From: a virus
Virus record (IMG/VR): IMGVR_UViG_3300029922_000007
Coordinates: 102,170 to 166,169 of that record
Direction: 5' to 3' (one strand)
DNA length: 64,000 nucleotides
Shown here: positions 12,925 to 64,000 of the stretch, one piece after another
Layout of the letters: each line of letters begins with the position of its first letter
Numbering within the stretch: position 1 is the first letter of the stretch
The notes under the pieces: model-generated
Seen by the model: only the letters and a program-made list of their open reading frames with translations
The model's database searches: none
Told to the model about the DNA's origin: nothing
Program-made: the position numbers and the translations under genes

Positions 12925-15900
12925 TTATGTTAGTAACGATACACTTATATCACTAAGTTGAACGACGAATGCTTTTTGGCCAGTAGCTAATACAATTTCG
13001 TCATTGTTTACATTATATGCTGGACTCACCATCACAACGCTGGTCACACCAGGGATCAGCCTTACAGTTTCCACGATAGAACTCAAGTCAATACTAACTC
13101 CCAAGGGATTCGATTCAATCAAGGAGTACACTGAAGCTTGGATCTGCTGAGTAATCTGGCTGAACGAAACACCAATATTAGTTCTTATGGCCAAAGAAAC
13201 TTTAACTCTGAAATCGAGAGGTTCTCTGATAAAAATATTAGTACCAGCCGCCGAGACTCCTGGGTAGCTGATTGGATCACGTGGATCGCCATAGATTACT
13301 CGATTTGATTCACCGATCAAACCCGTATCGTAGTTATACGAATCTATTCCAAGTCTAATCGTTGTTGGAAAGTTTAATTTTCCAAGTGCAGTCATAGTAA
13401 CACCAGCGCTCAGATCGATTTTTTCATATTGGGCAGATGTATTGAAAACGATATCGTTAAAGCTGGTAGTTCCTGGCTCAGATGCAACATATGCAACCTG
13501 TTTATAGCCGGTGTACTTGATACCTTCTTGCACAGAGAGAGATGAAAAATTACCAGCAACATTCGTATCGTATTGAGTAGAAATTACACCAGATACAACG
13601 ACAGATGTTGGACTCAAAACCTGCAAGATATTATAGGTTCCAGAATTGCCTGCTCCAAGAACGGTTCCATTAACGACAAACTTATCTCCGGGAACGGCAG
13701 CTTCGTATGGATAGAATTGAATCTGAGGACGATCTACGGAGAAAGTTACAGATGAGATTCCAGACTGTACCACAGCGGAAGGATTAACGACCGTCAAGAA
13801 TGGGGTTTGTCCGGTTTGAGTTACCACAAAGCTGAATGCGGCAGGCATCGAAACATCAACAGGAACATGGGTCGCGGCTGCAACAGTAGCAGTTACAGTA
13901 ACGACATTCCCACTTACAGAATGGGTCATCAAGGCCAAAGCTGAAAGGGCAGTATTGGTCTTAGTGGCAACCGTAGCTGCCGTATCTGGAGTAACACCAC
14001 CAACGACGGTCACTTCGATACCAGTAAAACCAGCAGGAGCCGGATCAGTATTTGAGCCACCAGATACATTATACCAAACGTAGTACTTATTAGCGTTTCC
14101 ACCGTTCCAAATTTCGAAGTAGTCTCCAGGACCAGTCGATGGGAAGGTTATAGCTGGGGGCATTGTAAATTGAACAATTTGTTGCTGTGAAGGTCCAGAT
14201 TGTTTTACAGTGAAGCTTCCTTGATTTGGGGTAGAGAAACCGGTTCCAAAAGTAACCACATCGCCTGGTTGGGCAACCCCTAAGAATGGAGCAGTTCCAG
14301 TTCCAGTCCAACTGAGAGTTTCGATCCCTCCAGAAACAGAAACATTAAATACAGTAGTAGCATCGTATCCAGTAGAAATAGTACCTGCAGTGCAGGTTAC
14401 TTCTTCTTCTACAGAGTTAGCATTTTCATACCAAACACTATCGTTGTTTTCACGAATGACTCGATATTCACCTTGATTGAGGGGGCTGAAGGGGGAAGCT
14501 AAAATCATCGTGTCGCCTTCAGAAACAGATGATGTAGCGGTGAAGTCTCCAGCTAGTACAATAGTCCCATTTTCAACTACTACGGATGGATTAGAAACGG
14601 TAAAGGACAATCCATCTGGAGATACTCCAGTTACAAAGAATGTCCCGTTATTGCCAGCGTTCGCCATCCTCGTAATGGTAATCAAGTCTCCAATAGAGAG
14701 ACCGGCAAAGTTGGCATTGCCAGCAGGTCCAGGAGGGGCTGACTGTGTGTTAATGGTTGCTGTATCGCTTAAGGTAACCGCTGCAGTCAAGGCGATTAGG
14801 GACCCATTTACGATGCCGCCAAGAGTGTTGATGATGCTTGCCTGAGCTACAATATTACCTTCAAAGGTTCCAGCACTTCCACTATTAATGGTAGCAGATG
14901 AACCCACAATCCAGAAGATGTCTGCTGCAGTAGCCCCACCAGTCAAAACCATAGTTGGAACCCCACCAGCTCCAGTTGTGAGGGTAGACGCCGCATAAAT
15001 GATGTATTGTCCTGCACCATTAAAAGTCAGGGTTGCAGGACCCGATGTGGCCAAGTTAAACGTCCCGCTAGATTCCTTATAATTCCCAGGAGTCAAAACT
15101 ACTCCATCGAGATCTGCAGAAATAGCAGTTCCGGCCAACCCAAGAGTTTGCATGCTAGTATATGCTGCTAGAGCATCATTTTGGGCGGTATTTGCTGCTG
15201 AGTTAGCCAAGTTAGTAGAGCCAGTAACGGTAAAAGTGCCGGTAACAGTAGATCCAGGATATTCACCCAAATTCCCATTAACTACGCTGGTTCCAACACT
15301 ATTAGTGATGGCAGAAGATGCCAAGATCCCATAGGTAGCTGCTGACGCTAAAGGGCTTGGAGGTGGGGTTGGAGTTGGAACAGAGGTGTACGTACCATCA
15401 GAAGATACGTTTACGGTCCAATTCCCAGTATCGTTAAAATTCACTGAAGAGCTAAAGTCGGGAGAAGTTCCAACCCCATTCCAGCTAAGGCAGGTCAACA
15501 ATCCTTGTTTTTCTACCCTGAAAGTATCTCCTACAACCCTAATACCGCTTCTAGGAGCGCCAAAGTAGAGTTGCGCAGTTTCTTGGTTCAGGAGTATGAT
15601 CGTAGATTGTCCATCTATCGGCGTATTTTGTAGAACGGTAACACTCGTGTTATTGCTGATCCCCGTATCTTTCGTTTGATAGTTTGCCGCTTGGAGTCTG
15701 AACCATTGATCGCTAGCTACTGCTTGACTGGCGATGCTGTTAGCGGAGATGGACATCTCATTGTTACCAAGTAGCTCCCCAGAAGTCAATACTGGAACGA
15801 CATATTCGTTACCACTTCCGCCTACGATTTGGATAGCTCCGACAGATCCCAATGTTTCCGTTGCGAGTTGGAGTTTGGTTCCACGATCGACCACTTCTAC

Positions 15901-18900
15901 AGTTCCAACGGTAGTAAACCCAGTTACAGCCAAGATAGACCAAAGCCTTTGGACTTGATCCATAGTAGTTGGAATAAGTCTGACTTCATCTCCACTTGTA
16001 AAGAAGCTATAACCTGTATCGCTAGGGTAGGTAAGTGGTTCTTTAAGGGTAAATTGTGGATTTCCAGTAACGTTGGAGCTTGCAATCCAGTTAATCCCAT
16101 CTTTTAGGAAGTAGAATGGATGTGTAAATCCGCTATCTTCGAAAGTACTCAAAGCGATAATGCCAGATCCAGTAGTTCCGCCGTCATTTACGATCGTGGA
16201 AGTAAAGTACTGTTTTAGATTTGCATTGATATAGGTATTTATTTGTGCTGCCGTAGTTGGGGTTGCAATATAAAAAGTAATCCCGTTTAGAATGGTAGTA
16301 ACTACTCCAGTTTGATTTACGGCGGTACCGGTTGGGACTTGAACACTAAAGGATGTAGAAGTTGGAGTAAATCCTACTGCAGAAGATACCTTGAATGTTC
16401 CAGTGTTTGCGATGTTAAATCCGGTCGATGACAAGATCGTAACGTACTCTCCACCAGACAAGAACAGGGCTGGGTTGCCAGGACCGGAAAGGGTAAAGGC
16501 CGAGAAAGCAATCGTAGAATCGCCAGTTCCGGAAGTCTTGGTTAAGATTCCAGACGCAAGAGGCGGCCCACCAGCGCTCATTGCCGTTATCGTCGTACCA
16601 ACAAGCGTAACCTTAGTCGCGGTGACAGTGAACGTTTGGCCATTACTCGTATAGGTCGCGCCAATAGTTGCAGCGGCTGCCGTTGGGACAGTGAAAGTAT
16701 ACACTCCGTCCCAATTATAGGTTACTTGATCTGTCCCAGCAGTAGGGGTATTAGGGGTTACCGTTACGTTCCAAAGAGTGCTTGGCGCAATAGAAGATGC
16801 AATTGGTGCTCCGGACTGTAGGCCGATCGAAACACTTACTTCATTGTTAGAAGTGACAGTAACCGTAGAATTAATGGGTTGATTGGCAGAAGTAGGGTAG
16901 ACATAGGAAACATTTACCGCTTCACCGCTTCGGCCCCAAAGGGTGGACCTGATCAAAAGCGCTGTTTGAGCATTTGATCCCTGAAGTACAAATTTTGGTT
17001 GCAATAGGACCTTGAAGTTTGAGAAATCAAAGCCAGCAAAGTTTGTGGCAAAGGAAGCAGTAGGGCCAGCATCCACATCGTATGCGTTGAAACTATAATC
17101 GTTAGCGGGCCAAGTGCTGTTAACTATGGCTCTCCTGTAAAGAGGCATAGTATAGGTTTCGCCAGCAGTATTGTTGTCTACGATGGTAACTACCGTATCG
17201 TTATATCCAAAGTCGAGTGGGTTGGCCACATAGTACCTATCAGCGATTCTAAGACGTCTAACGTTTGGATACTCTGGGAGGATGGTAATTGCGGTTCCAG
17301 AAGTTGCCCACATTTGAACATTTTCTTCAGAAGGCTGTTCGTCATCAATAAGGCCAGTTCCAGCAGTAGTAAGGGTGGTTCCAGCTATGATGGTGGTACC
17401 TACCGTGAAGAAAATTCCGTTGTTAGAATACACAGCCCCGGAAGTTGCGTTTGCAGAGGTAGTCGTAAAGACAAATTGTCCTGGAGCAGGCGATGTAAAC
17501 GCAGAGAAAGTAATCGTTGAATCTCCGGTTCCAGAAACTTTGGTAAGAACTGGGGATCCAGAAGAAGGCTGTGAGTTGACTACTGCTGCAGCGCTTAAAG
17601 TTACAGCGGCAGTCAAGGCAATTAAAGATCCGTTAACTGTTCCGCCGAGGGTATTGGTGATGGAGGCCTGCGCTATGATGTTACCTTGGAAGGTTCCAAT
17701 ATTCCCGCTATTGATGGTAGCTGAGCTGCCTACAATCCAGAAGATGTTCTTTGCTAAAGCCCCACCAGAGAGGACCATGGTTGGAACGCCACCAGCACCG
17801 GTAGTAAGGGTAGAAGCGGTGATAATGATGTACTGTCCTGCCCCATTAAATGTAAGAGTTGCAGGACCAGAGGTAGCTAAAGTCGCTGCACCGGAAGAGA
17901 AGCTATATACGCCTGGAGTCAGGGTTTGACCGTCCAAGGCGGAAGGAATGACAGTCCCTGGAGCTTCTGCTGCCATGGTAGTATAAGCGGCCAAGGCGTC
18001 GTTTTGGGCGGTATGGGCCGCGCCATTAGCTAAGTTTGTAGCTCCAGTAACCGTAAAAGAACCGGTAACGGTAGAGCCAGGATATTCACCCAAGCTGCCG
18101 TTAACAGTGCTAGTCCCGACGCTATTGGTGATAGCGGAAGCCGCCAAGATACCATAATCGGCGGCTGAAGCTAGTGGGCTCGTAGAAGGACCGCCAGTAA
18201 GAGAGGGCGAGCTACCATATGGGTTCAGGAAATTGATAATTTCATTTGGACCGAATTGACTCAAAGATCTGGTGGACGTGAAGTTGGTTAGATATGTATC
18301 GATAGGTTCAGCATAGGAATCAGCACTGATCGTAGAATGAAAGAAAAGTGGTAATTCGGCAGTAGTAGCCTGGGTTTCATAGAACGCTACAAGGGCGTCC
18401 TGACTAGAGCTATTAGCCTGAGTGGTAAATCCAAGAGCTTGTCCTTCGGCATCAGCCGTAACAATGGTAAGCTCGCCTTCAGTATTGAGGGTGTTGGTAG
18501 TAACTACGATATTCGTATTGTCGAATACAGTGAAGGTGGCTTCGTCCGTTTGAGCTTGGAGTTCAGCGGCAATAACATCCAATGTACTGGTCCCAGACGT
18601 TACTTCGAACTTCTGAGGAACGTTGTTGGTTCTAACAACTACTAAACCCTGAACATAGAGGGCGTTCGTTACTGGAGTTACCAGGGCAGCTTCAGCGGCT
18701 GTGACCTTAATAGTCAGAACGGATCCGGTTGCGGAATGAACTCTTCCTTCAAGTTGGTCAGTATCGGGAATTTCGGCAGACCAAATGATGACGTAGTCTC
18801 CGGGAAGAACATTCGAAAATGAATTAGCTCCAGAAGAAGTGTAGCTAACCAAATCTCCTGAGACAGAAACGGAAAGATTAGATCCGGATTGGATGGTTGG

Positions 18901-21165
18901 AATGATTACTTCTGGAGAATCGATTAGGATCCAAACATGGGCGTTAGAGGTGAGCGTTACTGATCCAGAAGGAATGGTGATGCCTTTAATGTTGGCTTGA
19001 GTTACGAGAGTGCCTGCGGAAAGCTTATCTCCTTTAACCAAGGGCTTGACCAACTGAATCTGAGCGGTATTTCTGTCCAAAATATAGTCTGAAGCTACCC
19101 CAGTGGAGGTGAGGTCGGTGACGCTGATCATTCCCTTAGCAATCAAAGAGCTTGGATTAGCTACGGTATTTACGACCGTAACTTGAGCGCGATTTACCGC
19201 GCCAAGATTACTGGTGAATTCGATGGTGGACCCAACAGGGGTAGCAGTAACACCGGTAAGAAGTTTATTGAAGACGTTGACCCAAGATTGAATGCTGTTT
19301 GAGGAAGAGACGGTTTGATAAGTACCTTCAGCGACAAATTCAGCATCGGTGACAGTATAGGTCGTTGGTTGGGTTCCATCTACTGAAAGACTGAGAGTTT
19401 CGCCATTAGCAATAGTAGCGGACCAAAGACTCTGTGACTCAGTAAAGATAGAAGCAGTAGATCCATCTTCAGTGAGAAGGATTCCGTTTTTGTAGAGTCT
19501 GAGAGTTTTGGCGACGTTGGACGGGAATTGGAGTGCGAGGTTTGCATCGGTTACCAGGGAAGAGCTTGGGGGTTTAACTTGGATAGTATTGATAGTTTGG
19601 GAAATAGGACGAATGACGACAAAAGTTCCGTCGCCAGAAGTAACCGCTTCATAGGCAAGTAGGGTGTCGGCATTAATGCTAGCGGTAACTTCGTAGGCCG
19701 TAGCAGATCCTGGATTCTGAAAGTCGGTGGAAGCGAAAGTGTGCTGATAAGTAACATTCCCAACGATAACTTCCAGGACTTCGCCACCAGAAAGGGCGAA
19801 TGGGGATGGAGCAACAGTTTCAAGGAGAGCCTTAGTTACTGAAGTTTGGGTTCCACCAGTTACGAGTTGAAAATATTGTTCGCCGCCAAGAGCAGAATCT
19901 ACGATGGACTCGATTCCAACACCTAACCACGTAGCTTCGTAGCCGGAGCCATCATCAACATAAACAATGGTATTGCCCGAAGAATTCAGGATATCCGTGC
20001 TAACGATGGTAGCCGAAGAATTAGGGTCTTGGACCCCGAGCAATGCGCTCTCGATTGCAGTTACGGTCCCTAAGCCAGTAGAAGAAAGTTGAAGCTTGAT
20101 TCTAATCCTGTACGCATCATCTGTCTCTGTGTCGGCCCCGGTGGTAAAAGAAACGGGGTTAGTAACTGTAGCATTTGGGAAAGGAGCGCCTGCAAATTCA
20201 TCAACGGCACCAGCAGGAGCGTTCCCTAGAGCGCCTGGAAGCATGGCCGTCACAGCCACATTAGTCACGGTCGTTTCGCCATCGAGAATGATGGCCTGCT
20301 GAGTTACTGAGAATTGAATGTCTGGAGTGGACCCAACACCTGGATCGACTACGACAGTATTGACTGGGATAGTCCTAACGCCACCTTGAGCAAGAATAAC
20401 GGATTCGTTCAGGTTGTGATACTTAGTGGTTGGGCTAACCAGGGTAATGGCCCAATAGGAGCCAACTCGAACTGGAGGGGTACTGAAGGTAAAGACGATC
20501 CCACCAGCAGTTGCGGTGGCCGGATTGCTGATTGTAATTTGGCTACTAGAATCTACTGATTGGATGATGGATCCAGCTACAATGCCGATACCTGAAATAG
20601 GGAAGCCAGCGAGTAGGCCAAGAGTCGAAGATAGGCCGGAAATGACGTTTGAGAGATTTGCAGTGCTACCAGTGGCAGAAAGGGTTCCGGTGCCATAGGT
20701 TAGAGGGCCTTCGATGTCGGAGGTGCCACGGCCAATATAGAGGCCTCCGGTGGCTGGGAAGAGGGAAGCGTCGGAAACATAGATGGTGGTAGAGCCAATG
20801 AGGGGTGGATTCAAGCCAGAATAGATCTTGGCAGAAATCTTCTGAAATGAAGTATCAATTACCGTTACAAATCCAGTAGTTACCTTGGCGGTAAGGCGTG
20901 GAATGCCGTATTCTACGCCAAGACGATCTAAACTACTGCCCGTAGCCCTATCCAGGGAGAAATCTCGGAGGATAGAGAAGATGTCCCCGCTTGACCTAGC
21001 GGCTATCAAACTGACAATTTCAAAAAATTTTACATTGGCAGCCGAAACGCTTTGATCGGAAATCCCCAACGATCCCGCATAGCTAGAGAGTGCATTGCCA
21101 AGAATCTGTTGGTAGCTCTGGGGCTGTGGGAGAGATCCATTTTGAGAAGTAGGGGTAGTGGCCAT
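12925..21165 (-). CDS. Giant baseplate-J (gp6-like) protein with about 2200 aa of inserted beta domains, including two DUF3494-like domains
   Basis: N-terminal ATGSSLDRLGVEYGIPR..PGALGN..GADTETDDAYRIRI..GTVTAI; C-terminal SAAGTNIFI..QASVYSLI..LGVSIDLSSIV..IPGVTSV. Confidence 0.85.
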   Translation of the reverse strand: MATTPTSQNGSLPQPQSYQQILGNALSSYAGSLGISDQSVSAANVKFFEIVSLIAARSSGDIFSILRDFSLDRATGSSLDRLGVEYGIPRLTAKVTTGFVTVIDTSFQKISAKIYSGLNPPLIGSTTIYVSDASLFPATGGLYIGRGTSDIEGPLTYGTGTLSATGSTANLSNVISGLSSTLGLLAGFPISGIGIVAGSIIQSVDSSSQITISNPATATAGGIVFTFSTPPVRVGSYWAITLVSPTTKYHNLNESVILAQGGVRTIPVNTVVVDPGVGSTPDIQFSVTQQAIILDGETTVTNVAVTAMLPGALGNAPAGAVDEFAGAPFPNATVTNPVSFTTGADTETDDAYRIRIKLQLSSTGLGTVTAIESALLGVQDPNSSATIVSTDILNSSGNTIVYVDDGSGYEATWLGVGIESIVDSALGGEQYFQLVTGGTQTSVTKALLETVAPSPFALSGGEVLEVIVGNVTYQHTFASTDFQNPGSATAYEVTASINADTLLAYEAVTSGDGTFVVIRPISQTINTIQVKPPSSSLVTDANLALQFPSNVAKTLRLYKNGILLTEDGSTASIFTESQSLWSATIANGETLSLSVDGTQPTTYTVTDAEFVAEGTYQTVSSSNSIQSWVNVFNKLLTGVTATPVGSTIEFTSNLGAVNRAQVTVVNTVANPSSLIAKGMISVTDLTSTGVASDYILDRNTAQIQLVKPLVKGDKLSAGTLVTQANIKGITIPSGSVTLTSNAHVWILIDSPEVIIPTIQSGSNLSVSVSGDLVSYTSSGANSFSNVLPGDYVIIWSAEIPDTDQLEGRVHSATGSVLTIKVTAAEAALVTPVTNALYVQGLVVVRTNNVPQKFEVTSGTSTLDVIAAELQAQTDEATFTVFDNTNIVVTTNTLNTEGELTIVTADAEGQALGFTTQANSSSQDALVAFYETQATTAELPLFFHSTISADSYAEPIDTYLTNFTSTRSLSQFGPNEIINFLNPYGSSPSLTGGPSTSPLASAADYGILAASAITNSVGTSTVNGSLGEYPGSTVTGSFTVTGATNLANGAAHTAQNDALAAYTTMAAEAPGTVIPSALDGQTLTPGVYSFSSGAATLATSGPATLTFNGAGQYIIITASTLTTGAGGVPTMVLSGGALAKNIFWIVGSSATINSGNIGTFQGNIIAQASITNTLGGTVNGSLIALTAAVTLSAAAVVNSQPSSGSPVLTKVSGTGDSTITFSAFTSPAPGQFVFTTTSANATSGAVYSNNGIFFTVGTTIIAGTTLTTAGTGLIDDEQPSEENVQMWATSGTAITILPEYPNVRRLRIADRYYVANPLDFGYNDTVVTIVDNNTAGETYTMPLYRRAIVNSTWPANDYSFNAYDVDAGPTASFATNFAGFDFSNFKVLLQPKFVLQGSNAQTALLIRSTLWGRSGEAVNVSYVYPTSANQPINSTVTVTSNNEVSVSIGLQSGAPIASSIAPSTLWNVTVTPNTPTAGTDQVTYNWDGVYTFTVPTAAAATIGATYTSNGQTFTVTATKVTLVGTTITAMSAGGPPLASGILTKTSGTGDSTIAFSAFTLSGPGNPALFLSGGEYVTILSSTGFNIANTGTFKVSSAVGFTPTSTSFSVQVPTGTAVNQTGVVTTILNGITFYIATPTTAAQINTYINANLKQYFTSTIVNDGGTTGSGIIALSTFEDSGFTHPFYFLKDGINWIASSNVTGNPQFTLKEPLTYPSDTGYSFFTSGDEVRLIPTTMDQVQRLWSILAVTGFTTVGTVEVVDRGTKLQLATETLGSVGAIQIVGGSGNEYVVPVLTSGELLGNNEMSISANSIASQAVASDQWFRLQAANYQTKDTGISNNTSVTVLQNTPIDGQSTIILLNQETAQLYFGAPRSGIRVVGDTFRVEKQGLLTCLSWNGVGTSPDFSSSVNFNDTGNWTVNVSSDGTYTSVPTPTPPPSPLASAATYGILASSAITNSVGTSVVNGNLGEYPGSTVTGTFTVTGSTNLANSAANTAQNDALAAYTSMQTLGLAGTAISADLDGVVLTPGNYKESSGTFNLATSGPATLTFNGAGQYIIYAASTLTTGAGGVPTMVLTGGATAADIFWIVGSSATINSGSAGTFEGNIVAQASIINTLGGIVNGSLIALTAAVTLSDTATINTQSAPPGPAGNANFAGLSIGDLITITRMANAGNNGTFFVTGVSPDGLSFTVSNPSVVVENGTIVLAGDFTATSSVSEGDTMILASPFSPLNQGEYRVIRENNDSVWYENANSVEEEVTCTAGTISTGYDATTVFNVSVSGGIETLSWTGTGTAPFLGVAQPGDVVTFGTGFSTPNQGSFTVKQSGPSQQQIVQFTMPPAITFPSTGPGDYFEIWNGGNANKYYVWYNVSGGSNTDPAPAGFTGIEVTVVGGVTPDTAATVATKTNTALSALALMTHSVSGNVVTVTATVAAATHVPVDVSMPAAFSFVVTQTGQTPFLTVVNPSAVVQSGISSVTFSVDRPQIQFYPYEAAVPGDKFVVNGTVLGAGNSGTYNILQVLSPTSVVVSGVISTQYDTNVAGNFSSLSVQEGIKYTGYKQVAYVASEPGTTSFNDIVFNTSAQYEKIDLSAGVTMTALGKLNFPTTIRLGIDSYNYDTGLIGESNRVIYGDPRDPISYPGVSAAGTNIFIREPLDFRVKVSLAIRTNIGVSFSQITQQIQASVYSLIESNPLGVSIDLSSIVETVRLIPGVTSVVMVSPAYNVNNDEIVLATGQKAFVVQLSDISVSLLT
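14750..15357 (-). other. DUF3494/ice-binding-like domain 2 in the baseplate-J protein
   Basis: LASAATYGILASSAITN..GNLG.YPG..AQNDALAAY..LDG.VLTPG.Y..IFWIVGSSATI..FEGNIVAQASI..GSLIALTAAVTL. Confidence 0.85.
17575..18180 (-). other. DUF3494/ice-binding-like domain 1 in the baseplate-J protein
   Basis: LASAADYGILAASAITN..AQNDALAAY..LDGQTLTPGVY..NIFWIVGSSATI..FQGNIIAQASIT..NGSLIALTAAVTL. Confidence 0.85.
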
Positions 21166-21169
21166 ACAG

Positions 21170-21177
21170 TAAGATTG
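21170..21177 (-). promoter_or_regulatory. Putative late promoter motif CAATCTTA
   Basis: 4 nt upstream of the baseplate-J ATG; no SD present. Confidence 0.65.
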
Positions 21178-40221: not shown

Positions 40222-43200
40222 CTAAATATCACAATTTCCAGAAGAACAGGCTAGAGACTTAGCTCCTTCCGTATTGTCTTCTTTTTCGTATGTACTTAAC
40301 TTAGAATAGTCCAGTTTAGGGAATGCTTTAGATAGCTTATGGAATTCTTCCTCTGTAATAGACTCATACGGGGCCTGCTCGTAAACATTGTCTTCGTGAG
40401 GCAAAAAAGATACTCCGTTGACAATATCCCAATTTTTGTAAACCCAATCCCCAACTGCAAGCCAGTCCTCGTTCTTTACATAGACCGTAATAGAGGCATT
40501 ATGTTCACACCAATTCTTTTGAACTTTCTTATAGTGTTCGAGCTGTTGGATGGCCGTAACATCTTCTACTGTGATGGCGTTTTTAGGGGCTGCAATTGGA
40601 AAGGATACTACCCAAGTGGACACCTTATCTTGAGACCATCCAGTATTGTCGAACATAGGGCAAATGGACTTTGCCTGTCTCATGGCCTCTGCTTTGCTTT
40701 CGATAGAGTCGTAGATCTTAAAGGCCTTAACGTAGTCTTGTTTGCGTTGACCATTTTCTGGGGACACGGGGCACCCTTGGTCTCTAATCATCCTAAAGAG
40801 TGGGTCGTTTGCAGAAATGCGGTACCTACGAATGTAGAATTTTGAGAAGCGAGGATGGAGCCCAGAGGCAGAGTCTACCAGTTGTGAGACCGTGTTGTGG
40901 CTTCTAACCGATCCATTGTAATACTGATGTTCTCCGCCGACTTCGATATCGAAAGTTTCTTTTTGTCCAATAGATCGAACGTTAGAAACAACTCCTGAAA
41001 CGTTTAAGGATTCCTTATTGTCTCTTTCAAAAAACCATCTACCTTCGTTAATAGTGTCAATGCTAGACATCTTATTGCTGTTCCTAATAAGGGTCTTACA
41101 AGATCCATTATCCGATATGGCCGCAATGGACATTAAGTACATTTCTTTATTTTTTTGTAAGTTTTTACCTTTATCATTTAAGGATCTTCCTAGACAAATA
41201 CCAACAGACCAAGCTACGTGCTGCAAATGCTTTGAAAAATTTTTATCTGCGGTGGTTATCATAGCTCTTTTTACTCCATCCTTATCTACTCCGGACCAAC
41301 CATCGGAGTCGATTAGGCCAGAAATAAAAGCGATTATATCATTTTTAGATGACATCCTAACGCATTTTGGGACAATATCTAACTTATCGGAAAAATATTT
41401 CCATACATCGTTTTTTATGAACCAGTGCCAAAGCATCTTGGATGAAATGTCTAAAGTAAGGGCCTTTCTATGTTCGCTAGCTTTATGAAGTTTGCTTTCT
41501 ATTCCGAATGTTTCTTTTAATACTCTCTGGGCCTTTTCAAGATTGAATACGTGTTCGTCGATAAAGCGAATCCTATACTTGATAGGACTCATGGCTCCAT
41601 CACCCCAGAGATAGCCTAGAAGCCAACAGAGATCCTCCGTCAATTCATTGGGCTGAATAATGGAGTCGTGATCTCCTCTCATTTTTAGGGCTCTAGAGTC
41701 TAATTTTAGTAATTTAGAATGTTTTTCTGAATCGTATAAGTTGGGATCAATCTGCAAAACATGGTTCTCTGAAATATGTTTGGTTTCCATCCATTCATTA
41801 ATCGGCTCGATTCCACTCCTACCTTTTCCGATTTTTTTACCCACCACGAACCATTTGTGGTTGGGTGTGCTCTGAACTGAGAGGCCATAGGACATAGTGA
41901 TTTCCACGACTTCAGAGATACCGTTATCGTAAGTTTTAGTTATCCATTGTTCTTCATCTTTACAGACAACGGCCACATTTTTGTTAAACTTAGACCACTG
42001 TTCTCCGTCGATATGGCCCTCAAACAATTCTTCTAATGTAAGGATTCCAGTGCTCGTTGTTGTTAATGCGTCCCACGGGCGACAGCCGCTGGGCTTCACG
42101 CAGGTAATAGCGGTAGGCATAGGAATACCCATCGTTTCAGAGGCCTTCTTAGCGACCTTAATAGCCTTAGACTTGTAGGCCTTGAGAGCAGCATCAGTAC
42201 ATACATCGAGATTGTCGAATTGTCCGGTGATAGAGACCCCCAAAAGACGTTCTTCATCGCAGTTTTCTTTCCAGGAACTGCTAAGATTTGGAAAATTGGT
42301 AAAACAAGATTGAAGAATGCCCATCCAAACGGCTGTTTCTACCTTTTCAAGCATGGTCTCAATGTCGTCTTCCGCGCGAGCTACTATTTCAGATAAATTG
42401 CAGAATTCTTTTGAGCGAAGTAAAATTTCTGAACACGGGTTAACTCCTTGAATTAACTCGGCTTTTCTACGTTTAGGCGCCATCTTTTTTGCTGTTTCTA
42501 GATTGCAAATACCACGTTCGCCAGATCCAGAAGCGGCTAGGGCGGTCCATTCCTTCATGAATGTGATCAAAGTTGGCTTCTTATGGTATACCGCTGAATT
42601 ATTGGACATATAGCGTCTAACGGGAAAGTTTCCACTCTTAGAGTCTCGCATAAGGACATCGTCCAAATCAGACAGGCTAATCTCTGAACTTCTGCGGACT
42701 CCACCTACCACTACGATTTGAGCGATCTCATTTAGGATATCGTGACATTCCAGAGAAGTAAGCTTACGACCTCTGGCACCGTGAAATGTGTCCCTAATGA
42801 AGGAGTGCAACTGGGCAAGAGGTGCTGGACCAGAAGAACGCCCTCCCATGGTTTTTAGGCGTGCTCCTGCAGGACGGAGTTGATTATAGTCATGGGTAAA
42901 GTCTTGACCAGCGTATAGGGAGTAGATGTGATCCCTGACCGAATTAGACCAGCCAACACGGGAGTCTTCTACGACGTGAACTTTTTCGGTAAGATGGATG
43001 TCCTTGGGCACTTCAGGTAATAGAGAGGTGTATTTATTCTCAACGGAGAATCCGTATCCAGTTCCACACATAAGGATATATAGAGCTTCATGGAAAGCGT
43101 CAATGCTATCTACAGCCGCAAAGGCACAGTTATAGATAGTGACATTATCAGCCATTGCAGGAGCACCAGCAGCCCAAAGGAACCGCATAGATGGCATAAC

Positions 43201-43404
43201 TTCAAAATTAAGGACTTTTTCTTGAATCTTTTTAAGTACTTTAGGTGGGATCTTATCTCCGAGATTAGATTTTAGAAAATCGACATATCTCTGTACGGTT
43301 TGTGGCCAAAACTCTCGGCAGCCCTGCTCTTCAAGCCAACGAGAATAAGAACGAACGTAAACAAATTCGGCAGCTGGACTACGAAACATTTGTGCTCCTG
43401 GCAT
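40222..43404 (-). CDS. nrdJ: Class II (B12-dependent) ribonucleotide reductase with intein
   Basis: MPSMR, YNCAF, GGVRRS, GVNPCSEI, CVKPSG|TVSQL, HNASITV, C-terminal ACSSGNCDI. Confidence 0.9.
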   Translation of the reverse strand: MPGAQMFRSPAAEFVYVRSYSRWLEEQGCREFWPQTVQRYVDFLKSNLGDKIPPKVLKKIQEKVLNFEVMPSMRFLWAAGAPAMADNVTIYNCAFAAVDSIDAFHEALYILMCGTGYGFSVENKYTSLLPEVPKDIHLTEKVHVVEDSRVGWSNSVRDHIYSLYAGQDFTHDYNQLRPAGARLKTMGGRSSGPAPLAQLHSFIRDTFHGARGRKLTSLECHDILNEIAQIVVVGGVRRSSEISLSDLDDVLMRDSKSGNFPVRRYMSNNSAVYHKKPTLITFMKEWTALAASGSGERGICNLETAKKMAPKRRKAELIQGVNPCSEILLRSKEFCNLSEIVARAEDDIETMLEKVETAVWMGILQSCFTNFPNLSSSWKENCDEERLLGVSITGQFDNLDVCTDAALKAYKSKAIKVAKKASETMGIPMPTAITCVKPSGCRPWDALTTTSTGILTLEELFEGHIDGEQWSKFNKNVAVVCKDEEQWITKTYDNGISEVVEITMSYGLSVQSTPNHKWFVVGKKIGKGRSGIEPINEWMETKHISENHVLQIDPNLYDSEKHSKLLKLDSRALKMRGDHDSIIQPNELTEDLCWLLGYLWGDGAMSPIKYRIRFIDEHVFNLEKAQRVLKETFGIESKLHKASEHRKALTLDISSKMLWHWFIKNDVWKYFSDKLDIVPKCVRMSSKNDIIAFISGLIDSDGWSGVDKDGVKRAMITTADKNFSKHLQHVAWSVGICLGRSLNDKGKNLQKNKEMYLMSIAAISDNGSCKTLIRNSNKMSSIDTINEGRWFFERDNKESLNVSGVVSNVRSIGQKETFDIEVGGEHQYYNGSVRSHNTVSQLVDSASGLHPRFSKFYIRRYRISANDPLFRMIRDQGCPVSPENGQRKQDYVKAFKIYDSIESKAEAMRQAKSICPMFDNTGWSQDKVSTWVVSFPIAAPKNAITVEDVTAIQQLEHYKKVQKNWCEHNASITVYVKNEDWLAVGDWVYKNWDIVNGVSFLPHEDNVYEQAPYESITEEEFHKLSKAFPKLDYSKLSTYEKEDNTEGAKSLACSSGNCDI
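40894..42084 (-). mobile_element. Intein with LAGLIDADG endonuclease (397 aa)
   Basis: Starts with C after KPSG; block B TPNHKW; LLGYLWGDG and FISGLIDSDG; ends SHN before T+1. Confidence 0.9.
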
Positions 43405-46309: not shown

Positions 46310-46879
46310 TCAAGGGGTATTTTTCTTTCTTGGGCCGGATAAATCGCGAGACGTCTTTCGGCGGTGACAAGTCTTACATAAACAGACTACCCCTTCCAAG
46401 TTCAGTGAAAGAGGTTTATTTCCCTTATAGATGGCCTGCACATGATCGATTTCCGGTTCATGTCCTTCAGGGCTCTTTTGTTTAATTCTCTTCATTAGCC
46501 AATAGGAATAAACTACCTTAAAATCATTAGGCTTATCGTAGACTCTACCGTTAACCAAAAGCTGAAGGATGAGCGGAACGTAGTCATATTGACAATCGGA
46601 GCACTTGAAATCTTGTCTGACCAATAAATACCATAGGGAATTCTCACCTTGAGGGTAAAAATGAGCCTTTGCAGATTGAGAGCAGTCTTTCCCGCAGTAC
46701 TTTATTCCTTTAACTTTCATGGCATTACACCATGCGCACAGCCTTACGCCATCTACGATGATGGGCTGTATTAGAGTAAGGGCTACGGACCTGTTTTGGC
46801 ACGATTTAATAAGTTCGATGGCTTTAGGGTTCGTAGGAGGTTTGAGCATCAGAAGGATAATATCATGGATCGGTCTCAT
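46310..46879 (-). CDS. HNH endonuclease
   Basis: RQDFKCSDC..EIDHVQAIYKG..LCKTCHRRKT. Confidence 0.75.
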   Translation of the reverse strand: MRPIHDIILLMLKPPTNPKAIELIKSCQNRSVALTLIQPIIVDGVRLCAWCNAMKVKGIKYCGKDCSQSAKAHFYPQGENSLWYLLVRQDFKCSDCQYDYVPLILQLLVNGRVYDKPNDFKVVYSYWLMKRIKQKSPEGHEPEIDHVQAIYKGNKPLSLNLEGVVCLCKTCHRRKTSRDLSGPRKKNTP

Positions 46880-46967: not shown

Positions 46968-47738
46968 ATGTCTGATATTCCTGCCGCGAATCCTACCAAG
47001 CAATGTTCCAAGTGTAAGGAAGTTAAAGAGTTGGGTGAGTTTACCAAAAGTAGGAACCGCAAAAACGGAGTGGGATCTTGTTGTAAGGATTGCAAAAATA
47101 AGCAAAATGCAGCCTGGCAATCTCTCCCTTACGATCCAATACCTGAGATTAAAATCTGCACACTTTGTCTTATCGGTAAAAACCCAAATCGGTTTAGCAA
47201 AGCTAAAAATTCTAGAGATGGTCTGTGTCCCCAATGTAAGGATTGTAATAAAATTAACGCTAATCTCTATAGAGAGCAGCCATTGGACCCTCAGGTAAGT
47301 AAGATATGTGCCTCTTGCAATACGGAGAGATCTCCGCAAGAATATAGTTTTAATAAGACAGCGAGGGATGGTCTACAATCTATCTGTAGGGACTGTGCTA
47401 GAGAAGCACGTTTTAAGAAAGATTACGGAATTTCTATTGAATACTATAATCAGATCCTAGAAGAACAGGACGGGAAATGTGCTATCTGCCACATAACGCA
47501 AAACGAGAATGTTATCAATAACAAATCTGGGGAGCCTGCGCGATTTGCGGTAGACCACTGCCATAGAACTGGGAATGTGCGAGGATTACTGTGTGATCGT
47601 TGTAATAGAGCATTAGGAGCATTGCGCGATAACCCTAAAAGTGCTGAAAATGCTGCTGCTTATTTAAGATCCGGAGGGTCCATAAAACAAAAAGGGCACC
47701 TGATTACCTCAGATGCCCTTAACAAGATGTCTACCTAG
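46968..47738 (+). CDS. Endonuclease VII-type homing endonuclease
   Basis: Three KxCxxC..F..CKxC repeats; YGIS..Y..Q.GKCAIC; AVDHCH.TG.VRGLLC.RCN.ALG. Confidence 0.9.
   Translation: MSDIPAANPTKQCSKCKEVKELGEFTKSRNRKNGVGSCCKDCKNKQNAAWQSLPYDPIPEIKICTLCLIGKNPNRFSKAKNSRDGLCPQCKDCNKINANLYREQPLDPQVSKICASCNTERSPQEYSFNKTARDGLQSICRDCAREARFKKDYGISIEYYNQILEEQDGKCAICHITQNENVINNKSGEPARFAVDHCHRTGNVRGLLCDRCNRALGALRDNPKSAENAAAYLRSGGSIKQKGHLITSDALNKMST
47684..47720 (-). terminator. Intrinsic terminator of the stand-alone DUF3494 gene
   Basis: Minus strand GGGCATCTGA-GGTAA-TCAGGTGCCC (U-G wobble) followed by TTTTTGTTTT. Confidence 0.75.
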
Positions 47739-47744
47739 ATGAAC

Positions 47745-49070
47745 TTAGCAGTGATAGGCGTTCTGGACAACAACCGTAACAGTTGATCCAGAAACATAAG
47801 CATTTGCGCCAGCGAGAACAGGCGCTCCTGGCCCAGTAGCTTGAGCATTGACGACAGAAGCCGCACTCAGAGTTACAGCTCCCGTAAGAGCGATGAGGCT
47901 CCCATTGACCGTTCCACCTAGGGTATCTGTGATACTGGCTTCAGCAATAATGTTACCCTGGAAAGTGCCAGCCGTACCGGAATTAATAGTAGCCGAACTA
48001 CCAACGATCCAGAAGATATTGGCTGCAGTAGCTCCACCTGTCAAGGTCATGGTTGGAACACCGCCAGCACCGGTAGTAAGGGTAGAAGCCGCATAGATAT
48101 TGTATACGCCCGCACCGTTGAAGGTCAAAGTTCCAGGACCTGAAGTTGCCAAATGGAAGGTACCACTCGACTCCTTGTAGTTACCTGGAGTCAGAGTTTG
48201 ACCGTCAAGGGTAGCTGAAATAGCGGTCCCAGCCGAGCAGAGCGTTTGCTTTGCGGTAAAAGACGCTTGAGCGTTCGTTTGTCCAGTTGCAGCCACTGAA
48301 TCAGCAATGTGCTCAGTTCCCGTATATGTACCAGGTGGGAAACCGGTGATGGACGTCCCTGGAGAAATACCCAGATCTCCGGTCAGAACGCTAGCACCGG
48401 TATTCGTCACGGCGGAAGCAGCTAGAATTGCGAATCCACCAGGAGGGGTAATGGTAGAGCTAAGGACGGCTTGCGTCTTAGAGGCGACAGTAGCAGCAGA
48501 ATCGCCAGCGCCAATCGTCACTTCAATGCCAGTAAAGCCAGCAGGAGCTGGATCAGTATTTGAACCGCCAGAGACGTTGTACCAAACGTAGTACTTGTGA
48601 GCATTAGCTGCAGTAAACAATTCCCAATACTTACCGGCACCAGTCGAAGCAAAGGCGGATCCGGCTGGGAAGGTCATAGCCTCAAATTGCTGCCGAGCAT
48701 TTCCTACATAGTTGATAGTAAAACTAAATCCGGCAGGCATGGAAACGTTAATTACTGGGCTATTAGAAAGAGGCGGCCCACTTTGATAGCCACCGGCCAA
48801 ATTGTCCATGACAGATTGAAAAGCGGAATCGGGCAATTCAAAGCCGTCACGAACGAAGGACTGGGAACGCAGAGAGAGGCATACCGAGCCCAAGATGCAA
48901 GCCTGAAGTTCCGAGGCCACAGCGGGATCCGTGAGGCAATCCGTGAGACGGATATAGTCAGCAGGCGTAAGAACGGTACTGTTCTGGATATTAGCCGCTA
49001 AACGCTGACCAGAGGCTGTGCTGGCCATGCCAGAAATCAAATAACTGAGAGACTCGGTGGATAATGCCAT
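47745..49070 (-). CDS. Putative virion protein with DUF3494/ice-binding-like domain
   Basis: FAILAASAVTNTG..GDLGISPGTSITGFPPG..LDGQTLTPG..NIFWIVGSSATI..GNIIAEASIT..GSLIALTGAVTL (about 47845-48440); AAGGAG SD. Confidence 0.85.
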   Translation of the reverse strand: MALSTESLSYLISGMASTASGQRLAANIQNSTVLTPADYIRLTDCLTDPAVASELQACILGSVCLSLRSQSFVRDGFELPDSAFQSVMDNLAGGYQSGPPLSNSPVINVSMPAGFSFTINYVGNARQQFEAMTFPAGSAFASTGAGKYWELFTAANAHKYYVWYNVSGGSNTDPAPAGFTGIEVTIGAGDSAATVASKTQAVLSSTITPPGGFAILAASAVTNTGASVLTGDLGISPGTSITGFPPGTYTGTEHIADSVAATGQTNAQASFTAKQTLCSAGTAISATLDGQTLTPGNYKESSGTFHLATSGPGTLTFNGAGVYNIYAASTLTTGAGGVPTMTLTGGATAANIFWIVGSSATINSGTAGTFQGNIIAEASITDTLGGTVNGSLIALTGAVTLSAASVVNAQATGPGAPVLAGANAYVSGSTVTVVVQNAYHC

Positions 49071-49110
49071 AAAAACTCCTTAATTGTAACCCAATATAGT
49101 GGATTACGTA

Positions 49111-49118
49111 CAAGATTG
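49111..49118 (-). promoter_or_regulatory. Putative late promoter motif CAATCTTG
   Basis: Intergenic, 40 nt upstream of ATG 49070. Confidence 0.55.
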
Positions 49119-49149
49119 GAATAATGTTTCTTTCTGAATAGACAACTAG

Positions 49150-49344
49150 TTAATATCTTTGACTATTTCCTAAAATAAAAGGAAACCCATAGCTTTTGAA
49201 CCTGAACTTGACTTCAAACCTAAAACGGTAATAGTTTACCTCCGTTAAGCCTCCATTTTCCCATCCCCAGCCAAAACTAACCCCATATTCGGGCGGATTG
49301 TAGTTCAGTCTTTTCCAAGTAAGGGAAAACTTAGGTAGACTCAT
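49150..49344 (-). CDS. Hypothetical protein
   Basis: ATGA overlap. Confidence 0.55.
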   Translation of the reverse strand: MSLPKFSLTWKRLNYNPPEYGVSFGWGWENGGLTEVNYYRFRFEVKFRFKSYGFPFILGNSQRY

Positions 49345-63702: not shown

Positions 63703-64000
63703 ATGAAACTGCAAATTAAGAATCGGTTTACGGATCTTGTTATTTTTGAAGCTGATACTGCGGATATGAAAGCCTTAGTTCTATTGGCTATCGCTTCCGA
63801 TATCTCTCTGTCTGGGGCCAACCTGTCTGGGGCCAACCTGTCTGGGGCCAACCTGTCTGGGGCCAACCTGTCTGGGGCCAACCTGTCTCGGGCCAACCTG
63901 TCTCGGGCCAACCTGTCTCGGGCCAACCTGTATGGGGCCGACCTGTCTCGGGCCTACCTGTCTGGGGCCTACCTGTCTGGGGCCGACCTGTCTGGGGCCA
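63703..64000 (+). CDS. Pentapeptide-repeat protein (partial)
   Basis: [12 protein letters not shown] then ([10 protein letters not shown])n. Confidence 0.9.
63808..64000 (+). repeat. 15-bp tandem repeat, at least 12 copies
   Basis: CTGTCTGGGGCCAAC and variants. Confidence 0.95.

Follow-up and report, generated by a model that had tools for sequence, protein, structure and literature searches.

What use does a bacteriophage have for an ice-binding fold? The question is raised by a 441-amino-acid (aa) gene of IMG/VR virus record IMGVR_UViG_3300029922_000007, of which we analysed positions 102,170 to 166,169 (this whole stretch of 64,000 nucleotides is hereafter called the window). The gene encodes a DUF3494 domain, the commonest microbial ice-binding fold, which, to our knowledge, has until now been regarded as a protein that cells secrete. 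The window is the final 64 kb of a 166,169-bp record with a completeness rating of 100%, and the phage belongs to an uncultured group of Mx1-like myoviruses, distantly related to Mx1 itself; its major capsid protein is 47% identical to the counterpart in Myxococcus phage Mx1, whose genome is 169.6 kb. This capsid identity makes Myxococcota, along with other Gram-negative bacteria of soil, candidate hosts.

On balance, we favour the view that the 441-aa protein is an accessory adhesin of the virion surface, attached to the particle. As such it would probably hold the virus particle to a surface, whether ice, host slime or another material. This proposal is based on the architecture of the protein, on the distribution of DUF3494 domains within the phage group, and on a conserved arrangement of transcription signals around the gene.

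Domain architecture of the 441-aa protein

The AlphaFold2 (AF2) model of the protein (34 relatives) has a mean predicted local distance difference test score (pLDDT) of 90.6. Specifically, from the N- to the C-terminus the model contains; 1) six helices between residues 5 and 89; 2) strands at 116-186 followed by a helix at 192-203; 3) a solenoid with a long helix at 213-408; and, 4) strands at 422-435. Pfam recognises a single family in the whole protein, PF11999, and a PHROGs search assigned it to no family. No signal peptide was found, as there is no basic or hydrophobic leader and the maximum 11-residue hydropathy is 1.0. By a crude test, 113 of the 121 closest relatives are not signal-peptide-like either, and the one genomic context examined among relatives that match in the domain only is phage-like.

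The identity of the DUF3494 domain is clear. PF11999 matches residues 215-406 over profile positions 1-207 of 208 (E 1.1e-32, 113.9 bits, where the curated cut-off is 28.7 bits), and by sequence its nearest relative of solved structure is 6EIO (E 8e-32). In the AF2 model the domain is a β-solenoid with a long α-helix (258-279) lying alongside it, the arrangement that defines the DUF3494 fold. It superimposes on AnpIBP (7BWY) with a Z score of 31.0 and a root-mean-square deviation of 1.2 Å over 193 residues at 43% identity, and on EfcIBP (6EIO) with a Z score of 29.9 at 41% identity. AnpIBP, which is from an Antarctic fungus (7BWX/7BWY), and EfcIBP belong to the same capless DUF3494, or type-1, family and share its fold. 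However, both are secreted single-domain proteins of cold-adapted cells, whereas the 441-aa protein is encoded by a phage, has no signal peptide, carries its DUF3494 domain nested inside another domain and behind a conserved helical N-terminal domain, lies behind a late-type promoter motif, and has a putative ice activity.

The first 95 residues form a six-helix domain (the N-domain) that has no match in Pfam, in PHROGs or among solved folds. When residues 1-214 were searched as a unit no convincing solved relative emerged: the best Foldseek hit had an E value of 0.07, and a VIA fold search against about 48,000 chains gave at best a Z score of 4.5, to small helix-turn-helix bundles. Because the domain is acidic, it is unlikely to bind DNA. 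The five residues that are invariant in the alignment of the family (L24, L34, L42, L65 and F77) all lie within it, and it occurs only together with DUF3494 and/or CHB_HEX_C_1 payloads, so that the N-domain end is kept while the domains to be displayed vary. We regard the N-domain as the part that defines the family and as a candidate docking domain. A conserved N-terminal domain with swappable outer domains is typical of phage fibres and decoration proteins.

The module of about 100 residues that follows is shared with baseplate/fibre proteins. In a tblastn search of the phage's own genome it is 57.6%, 42% and 39% identical to copies in proteins of 2746, 643 and 982 aa respectively. It has no Pfam family and no match among solved structures. 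Within residues 1-214 it is the sole part with matches among other viral proteins, and these matches include a protein annotated as baseplate J-like. A query made of the N-terminal 214 residues is matched by 779 cluster representatives, mostly by way of the module, and a single protein can contain up to 10 matched stretches.

Comparison with uninterrupted copies shows that the DUF3494 domain has been spliced into this module. A profile made from 412 such copies aligns with residues 110-208 at E 1.3e-37, and its positions 110-127 then align, in register, with residues 419-436, a match that is weak as a separate piece. In the 2746-aa, 643-aa and 982-aa proteins the module helix leads after a few residues into a strand of the SVSGNVVTVTAT type, and in P0124, a family member with a different layout, the strand comes directly after the helix. 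In the 441-aa protein, about 200 residues of DUF3494 stand between the module helix (192-203) and the sequence YVSGSTVTVVV. The final coil of a DUF3494 domain finishes beside its first coil (PMC11645318), and with its first and last coils side by side the domain would tolerate insertion into a loop of the module.

The original prediction had described a novel helical N-terminus, the lack of a signal peptide in contrast to cellular DUF3494 proteins, and a DUF3494 domain inserted inside a shared virion domain that resumes afterwards. The model and the fold searches agree with the first, the leader test with the second, and the profile together with the uninterrupted copies with the third.

DUF3494 carriers in the phage group

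About 25 full-length orthologues were found, at roughly 50-68% identity. Most are about 536 aa long, owing to an extra C-terminal CHB_HEX_C_1/Fn3_assoc domain. This domain was searched for in the genome of the phage and is absent from it, and therefore the 441-aa form is a genuine short variant. The forms that lack CHB_HEX_C_1 (P0001, the protein of the window, with P0004 and P0020) end in an aromatic residue, any residue and cysteine (YHC, YHIC and YPC; window 47745-47760), whereas the long forms of the family end in YVIT. Behind the N-domain the family shows several architectures, namely the module with DUF3494, with or without CHB_HEX_C_1; the module with CHB_HEX_C_1 and a C-terminal DUF3494; and CHB_HEX_C_1 alone.

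The original prediction treated the gene as a third DUF3494 copy beside a baseplate system, and a census of PF11999 across whole relatives reverses that order. The closest relative (162 kb) has two PF11999 matches in a 2621-aa baseplate protein, one in the orthologue, and one in rearranged form in a 917-aa protein, in the pattern seen in the tail sheath gene of our phage. Three relatives at a greater distance, G002, G003 and G004 (150, 176 and 163 kb; 91-100% complete), each have a single PF11999 match, and in each it lies in the counterpart of the 441-aa gene. Across the group, DUF3494 is thus carried by the stand-alone gene as the conserved core element. The inserts in baseplate and sheath represent a lineage-specific expansion, which occurs in this phage and the relative closest to it and nowhere else in the census.

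The domain carried by the counterparts in G002-G004 is of another kind. It is C-terminal rather than nested, belongs to the capped subtype, and matches FfIBP (4NU3) at E 2e-68. FfIBP itself (4NU2/4NU3) is a capped protein of Flavobacterium frigoris, and the counterparts in distant relatives (P0125 is one) match it in their final domain, whereas the domain in the window is capless, only 31% identical to that capped domain and differently placed. Between the 441-aa protein and such distant members, identity is 37% in the N-domain, 55% in the module and 32% in DUF3494. Acquisition or replacement of the DUF3494 in this gene slot has taken place at least twice and involved two subtypes. That one slot has held both is an argument for selection on the function of the fold itself.

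Within the phage, the two baseplate copies of DUF3494 share 69% and 65% identity with the domain of the 441-aa protein. At the DNA level the paralogues are about 70% identical with a longest exact match of 26 nt, values that led us to reject recent gene conversion with the baseplate copies. The paralogues are therefore old, and each has been kept separately.

A further copy lies outside the window, in a 977-aa protein (genome 19060-21993; locus L005, 124-3057, minus strand). Neither PHROGs nor Pfam recognises this gene as a tail sheath, and it was identified by homology to the annotated sheath of Mx1, which matches the protein only on the two flanks of the DUF3494 insert. The PF11999 profile matches the insert in the order 49-203 and then 2-106, which is consistent with a circularly permuted insert. 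With capless DUF3494 domains built into both sheath and baseplate, it follows that in this lineage the fold is displayed on particles.

Transcription unit and locus

The gene has the appearance of a transcription unit of its own (Table 1). Its start is preceded by a motif close to CAATCTTA, a sequence with 21 copies in the genome, of which about 16 stand between genes, 8-50 nt ahead of a gene. The intergenic sites lie mostly in the two blocks that hold the recognisable virion genes, and among the genes they precede are two fibre-like genes, the giant baseplate gene, and the genes of a 915-aa baseplate protein and a 790-aa protein. The bare 7-mer of the motif is not enriched across the genome (37 seen, 28 expected), but the estimated chance of finding it in the correct orientation within the 79-nt spacer is about 0.007.

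Table 1. Positions in the window of the 441-aa gene, its domains and its putative expression signals.
Feature	Position	Strand	Details
Late-type promoter motif CCAATCTTG	49111..49119	(-)	48 nt 5' of ATG; 7/8 match to CAATCTTA
Shine-Dalgarno sequence AAGGAG	49076..49081	(-)	ends five bases 5' of ATG
Coding sequence P0001, 441 aa	47745..49070	(-)	ATG at 49070; open reading frame (ORF) call
N-terminal six-helix domain, aa 1-95	48786..49070	(-)	helices 5-89; pLDDT ~95; acidic
'YYVWYNV' alpha/beta module, first part, aa 110-205	48456..48743	(-)	shared with 2746-aa, 643-aa and 982-aa baseplate/fibre proteins
Capless DUF3494 / IBP-1 beta-solenoid, complete, aa 213-408	47847..48434	(-)	nested in module
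Module resumption, aa 419-436 (...YVSGSTVTVVVQ)	47763..47816	(-)	two predicted strands, 422-427 and 430-435
Intrinsic terminator	47682..47720	(-)	12-bp stem (47720..47692), 5-nt loop, T-run

Conservation in relatives is the stronger indication. All of the orthologous loci examined, on assembly contigs L006-L009 and L022-L024 as well as in IMG/VR loci L031-L038, have (C/T)AATCTT at -47 to -59 from the start codon and then AGGAG or AAGGAG, despite diverged surroundings. Downstream, the terminator hairpin of the window (-21.3 kcal/mol, z -3.55 against shuffled sequences) overlaps the final codons of a convergent endonuclease VII-type gene, 46968..47738 (+), and a hairpin with a T-run also lies 3' of the orthologues in most loci, being visible in L006/7, L008, L009, L022 and L024. 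The late motif, strong Shine-Dalgarno sequence and own terminator that had been noted from the window alone are thus all present and recur in relatives. From the conserved motif pattern we infer that the 441-aa gene is expressed late.

The spacing of the motif varies within the genome. At many sites, of which window positions 21177 (before the 2746-aa gene), 24955, 33319 and 8581 are examples, CAATCTTA starts exactly 12-13 nt before the ATG, and at these close-set sites there is no ribosome-binding site (CAATCTTAnnnnnATG). If CAATCTTA is a -10-like element, the corresponding late messages would be nearly leaderless. The 441-aa gene and its orthologues differ from these sites in having a leader of about 40 nt and a strong ribosome site. 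In the distant orthologues at L034-L037, a conserved leader hairpin (CTACTGGAGTAATTACCAGT), about 20-45 nt away from the start codon on its upstream side, separates the motif from the ribosome site and could be a regulatory element.

The position of the gene, said at first to be some 27 kb from the baseplate gene, measures 26.6 kb from the 2746-aa baseplate gene (12925..21165). Around it lie a ribonucleotide reductase with an intein, HNH and endonuclease VII-type nucleases, a SLOG protein, a HAD phosphatase, an RlaP-type nucleotidyltransferase and an RNA ligase. The orthologues, on contigs of 36-176 kb, have a neighbourhood of the same kind with conserved synteny. Where the gene had been placed among middle genes, the flanks are genes of nucleotide metabolism and RNA repair, whose middle timing is putative.

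Several features of the surroundings can be added. The gene for the large subunit of ribonucleotide reductase, window 40222-43404 (-), is split by an intein with a LAGLIDADG homing endonuclease. Homing-type nucleases (endonuclease VII or HNH) at 46968-47738 (+) and 46310-46879 (-) adjoin the 441-aa gene, and a nuclease of this type stands beside the orthologue in at least four relatives (L009, L024, L008 and the P0012 contig), with its side and strand differing from case to case. Such neighbours may help cassettes of the 441-aa gene to move between co-infecting phages. Directly upstream of the late motif is a 64-aa ORF, 49150-49344 (-), which is rich in Trp, Gly and Phe and belongs to no family. 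At the contig end, window ~63927-64000, tandem repeats of about 15 nt (CCCAGACAGGTNGGC-like) continue to the end of the record and may be a terminal or packaging-related repeat.

Proposed role and alternatives

We propose that the 441-aa protein would be made in the cytoplasm, without a signal peptide, from its own unit behind the late-type motif. The six-helix N-domain would then dock it on the particle, with the capsid or the exterior of the neck or tail as candidate sites, and the ~100-aa module would serve as a pedestal. The DUF3494 domain, spliced into the last loop of the module, would expose the flat face of its solenoid on the outside, for attachment to a surface that is extended and regular. 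That surface would be ice or else a non-ice one, for instance the host envelope or slime polysaccharide. In support of an adhesin on the particle, two of the three domains, the module and DUF3494, are shared with a baseplate protein. The late-type control, the lack of an export signal, the conserved N-terminal domain with its exchangeable outer domains, and the display of the fold on sheath and baseplate in this lineage fit it as well.

T4 Hoc and Soc are non-essential late proteins whose genes lie apart from the structural clusters, and which dock on finished particles and display adhesive domains. The 441-aa protein resembles them in having a late-type gene away from the structural clusters and a putative display on the particle; by this analogy, docking on the capsid is a reasonable guess. 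PHROGs, Foldseek and VIA searches found no sequence or fold similarity to decoration proteins of the Hoc/Soc type. The role of a capsid or tail decoration protein, as given in the original prediction, fits the motif, the shared module, the N-domain with its variable outer domains, and the baseplate and sheath inserts; its place on capsid or tail is putative, however, and ice binding cannot be read from sequence.

A number of observations count against this proposal. Both virion attachment and adhesive function are what we infer, on indirect evidence. No cultured phage has a relative of the protein (tblastn against 50,697 cultured-phage records, Mx1 included, with three queries: the full-length protein, residues 1-214 and DUF3494), and hence there is no proteome to consult. 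The N-domain, in the fold searches with residues 1-214, matches no known virion-docking fold. The gene and the copies in relatives sit amid nucleotide-metabolism and RNA-repair genes, outside the structural block. With regard to the promoter, the CAATCTTA motif also occurs upstream of homing-endonuclease genes, CCAATCTTG departs from the CAATCTTA consensus at its last base, and a terminator is missing in the stretch that separates the upstream ORF from the motif, which leaves room for read-through.

The alternative that survives best is that the protein is late and soluble and stays outside the particle, being cytoplasmic until it is freed at lysis and then binding ice or matrix around the burst. 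It might, for example, inhibit ice recrystallisation near the progeny, or mask binding sites on debris. Release at lysis would agree with the late-type motif and the lack of a signal peptide, the gene does lie outside the structural blocks, and in cells DUF3494 proteins act as free extracellular proteins (PMC11645318). However, a free ice-binder needs neither a conserved 95-aa N-domain nor a module shared with the baseplate, and this lineage builds the same domain into its sheath and baseplate. We think a soluble role unlikely.

It is also conceivable, if rather improbable, that the protein is a true receptor-binding fibre or baseplate-attached protein that is essential for host recognition, in which DUF3494 binds a polymer of the host surface and ice is irrelevant. 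The module and DUF3494 are both found in the baseplate wedge protein, and orthologues carry in addition CHB_HEX_C_1, whose Pfam name refers to the C-terminal domain of chitobiases/beta-hexosaminidases. Moreover, the same general solenoid fold is found outside any ice context in the competence pilin ComZ of Thermus thermophilus (6QVI; Z 13.5, 187 residues aligned), although identity is 10% and ComZ is a bacterial pilus protein with an unrelated host domain. We take the ComZ solenoid to be inserted into the host domain of a surface filament protein, in which case it would be a precedent for non-ice surface display. Against a receptor-binding role, throughout the group the gene keeps its place at a distance from the tail genes, there is no sign of a trimeric fibre shaft, and the domain is 41-43% identical to proven ice-binders.

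Finally, PF11999 genes on Arctic viral contigs have been listed as possible host cryoprotection genes, with their architecture not analysed (PMC11515562), but an auxiliary metabolic gene that shields the infected host from freezing is very improbable here, given the late-type motif, the baseplate-type module and the N-domain, and because a protein without an export signal cannot reach the cell surface before lysis. In contrast to that reading, the domain context of the 441-aa protein points to a particle protein, and in the literature we found no description of phage PF11999 genes as particle proteins.

Returning to the particle-attached adhesin, the nature of its ligand is a separate matter. 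We lean away from ice as the biologically relevant ligand while holding it to be a real possibility: it is kept plausible by the 41-43% identity to proven ice-binders and by the near-FfIBP domain in relatives, and is weighed against by the occurrence of DUF3494 proteins in non-freezing habitats too (PMC11645318), by the CHB_HEX_C_1 domain of orthologues and by the use of a related solenoid in the pilin ComZ. Only with little confidence, then, do we raise the idea that the group keeps a dedicated ice-binding particle protein, by which the virion would adsorb to ice or block recrystallisation, and so survive freeze-thaw or stay in the liquid veins that bear its hosts. In one lineage this would have grown into a particle-wide coat comprising the 441-aa protein, every sheath subunit and the baseplate.

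What is new here is a conserved phage gene family, with a unit of its own and a conserved late-type motif in front, in which DUF3494 is the sole constant payload. The same gene offers two natural DUF3494 variants for a comparison of ice and glycan binding. If the protein is on the particle, it would be either a defined case of a virus with an environmental-surface adhesin or a new class of receptor-binding domain. An ice-binding particle system, if true, would mark the first description, on a virus, of a structural adhesin system directed at the environment and not at the host.

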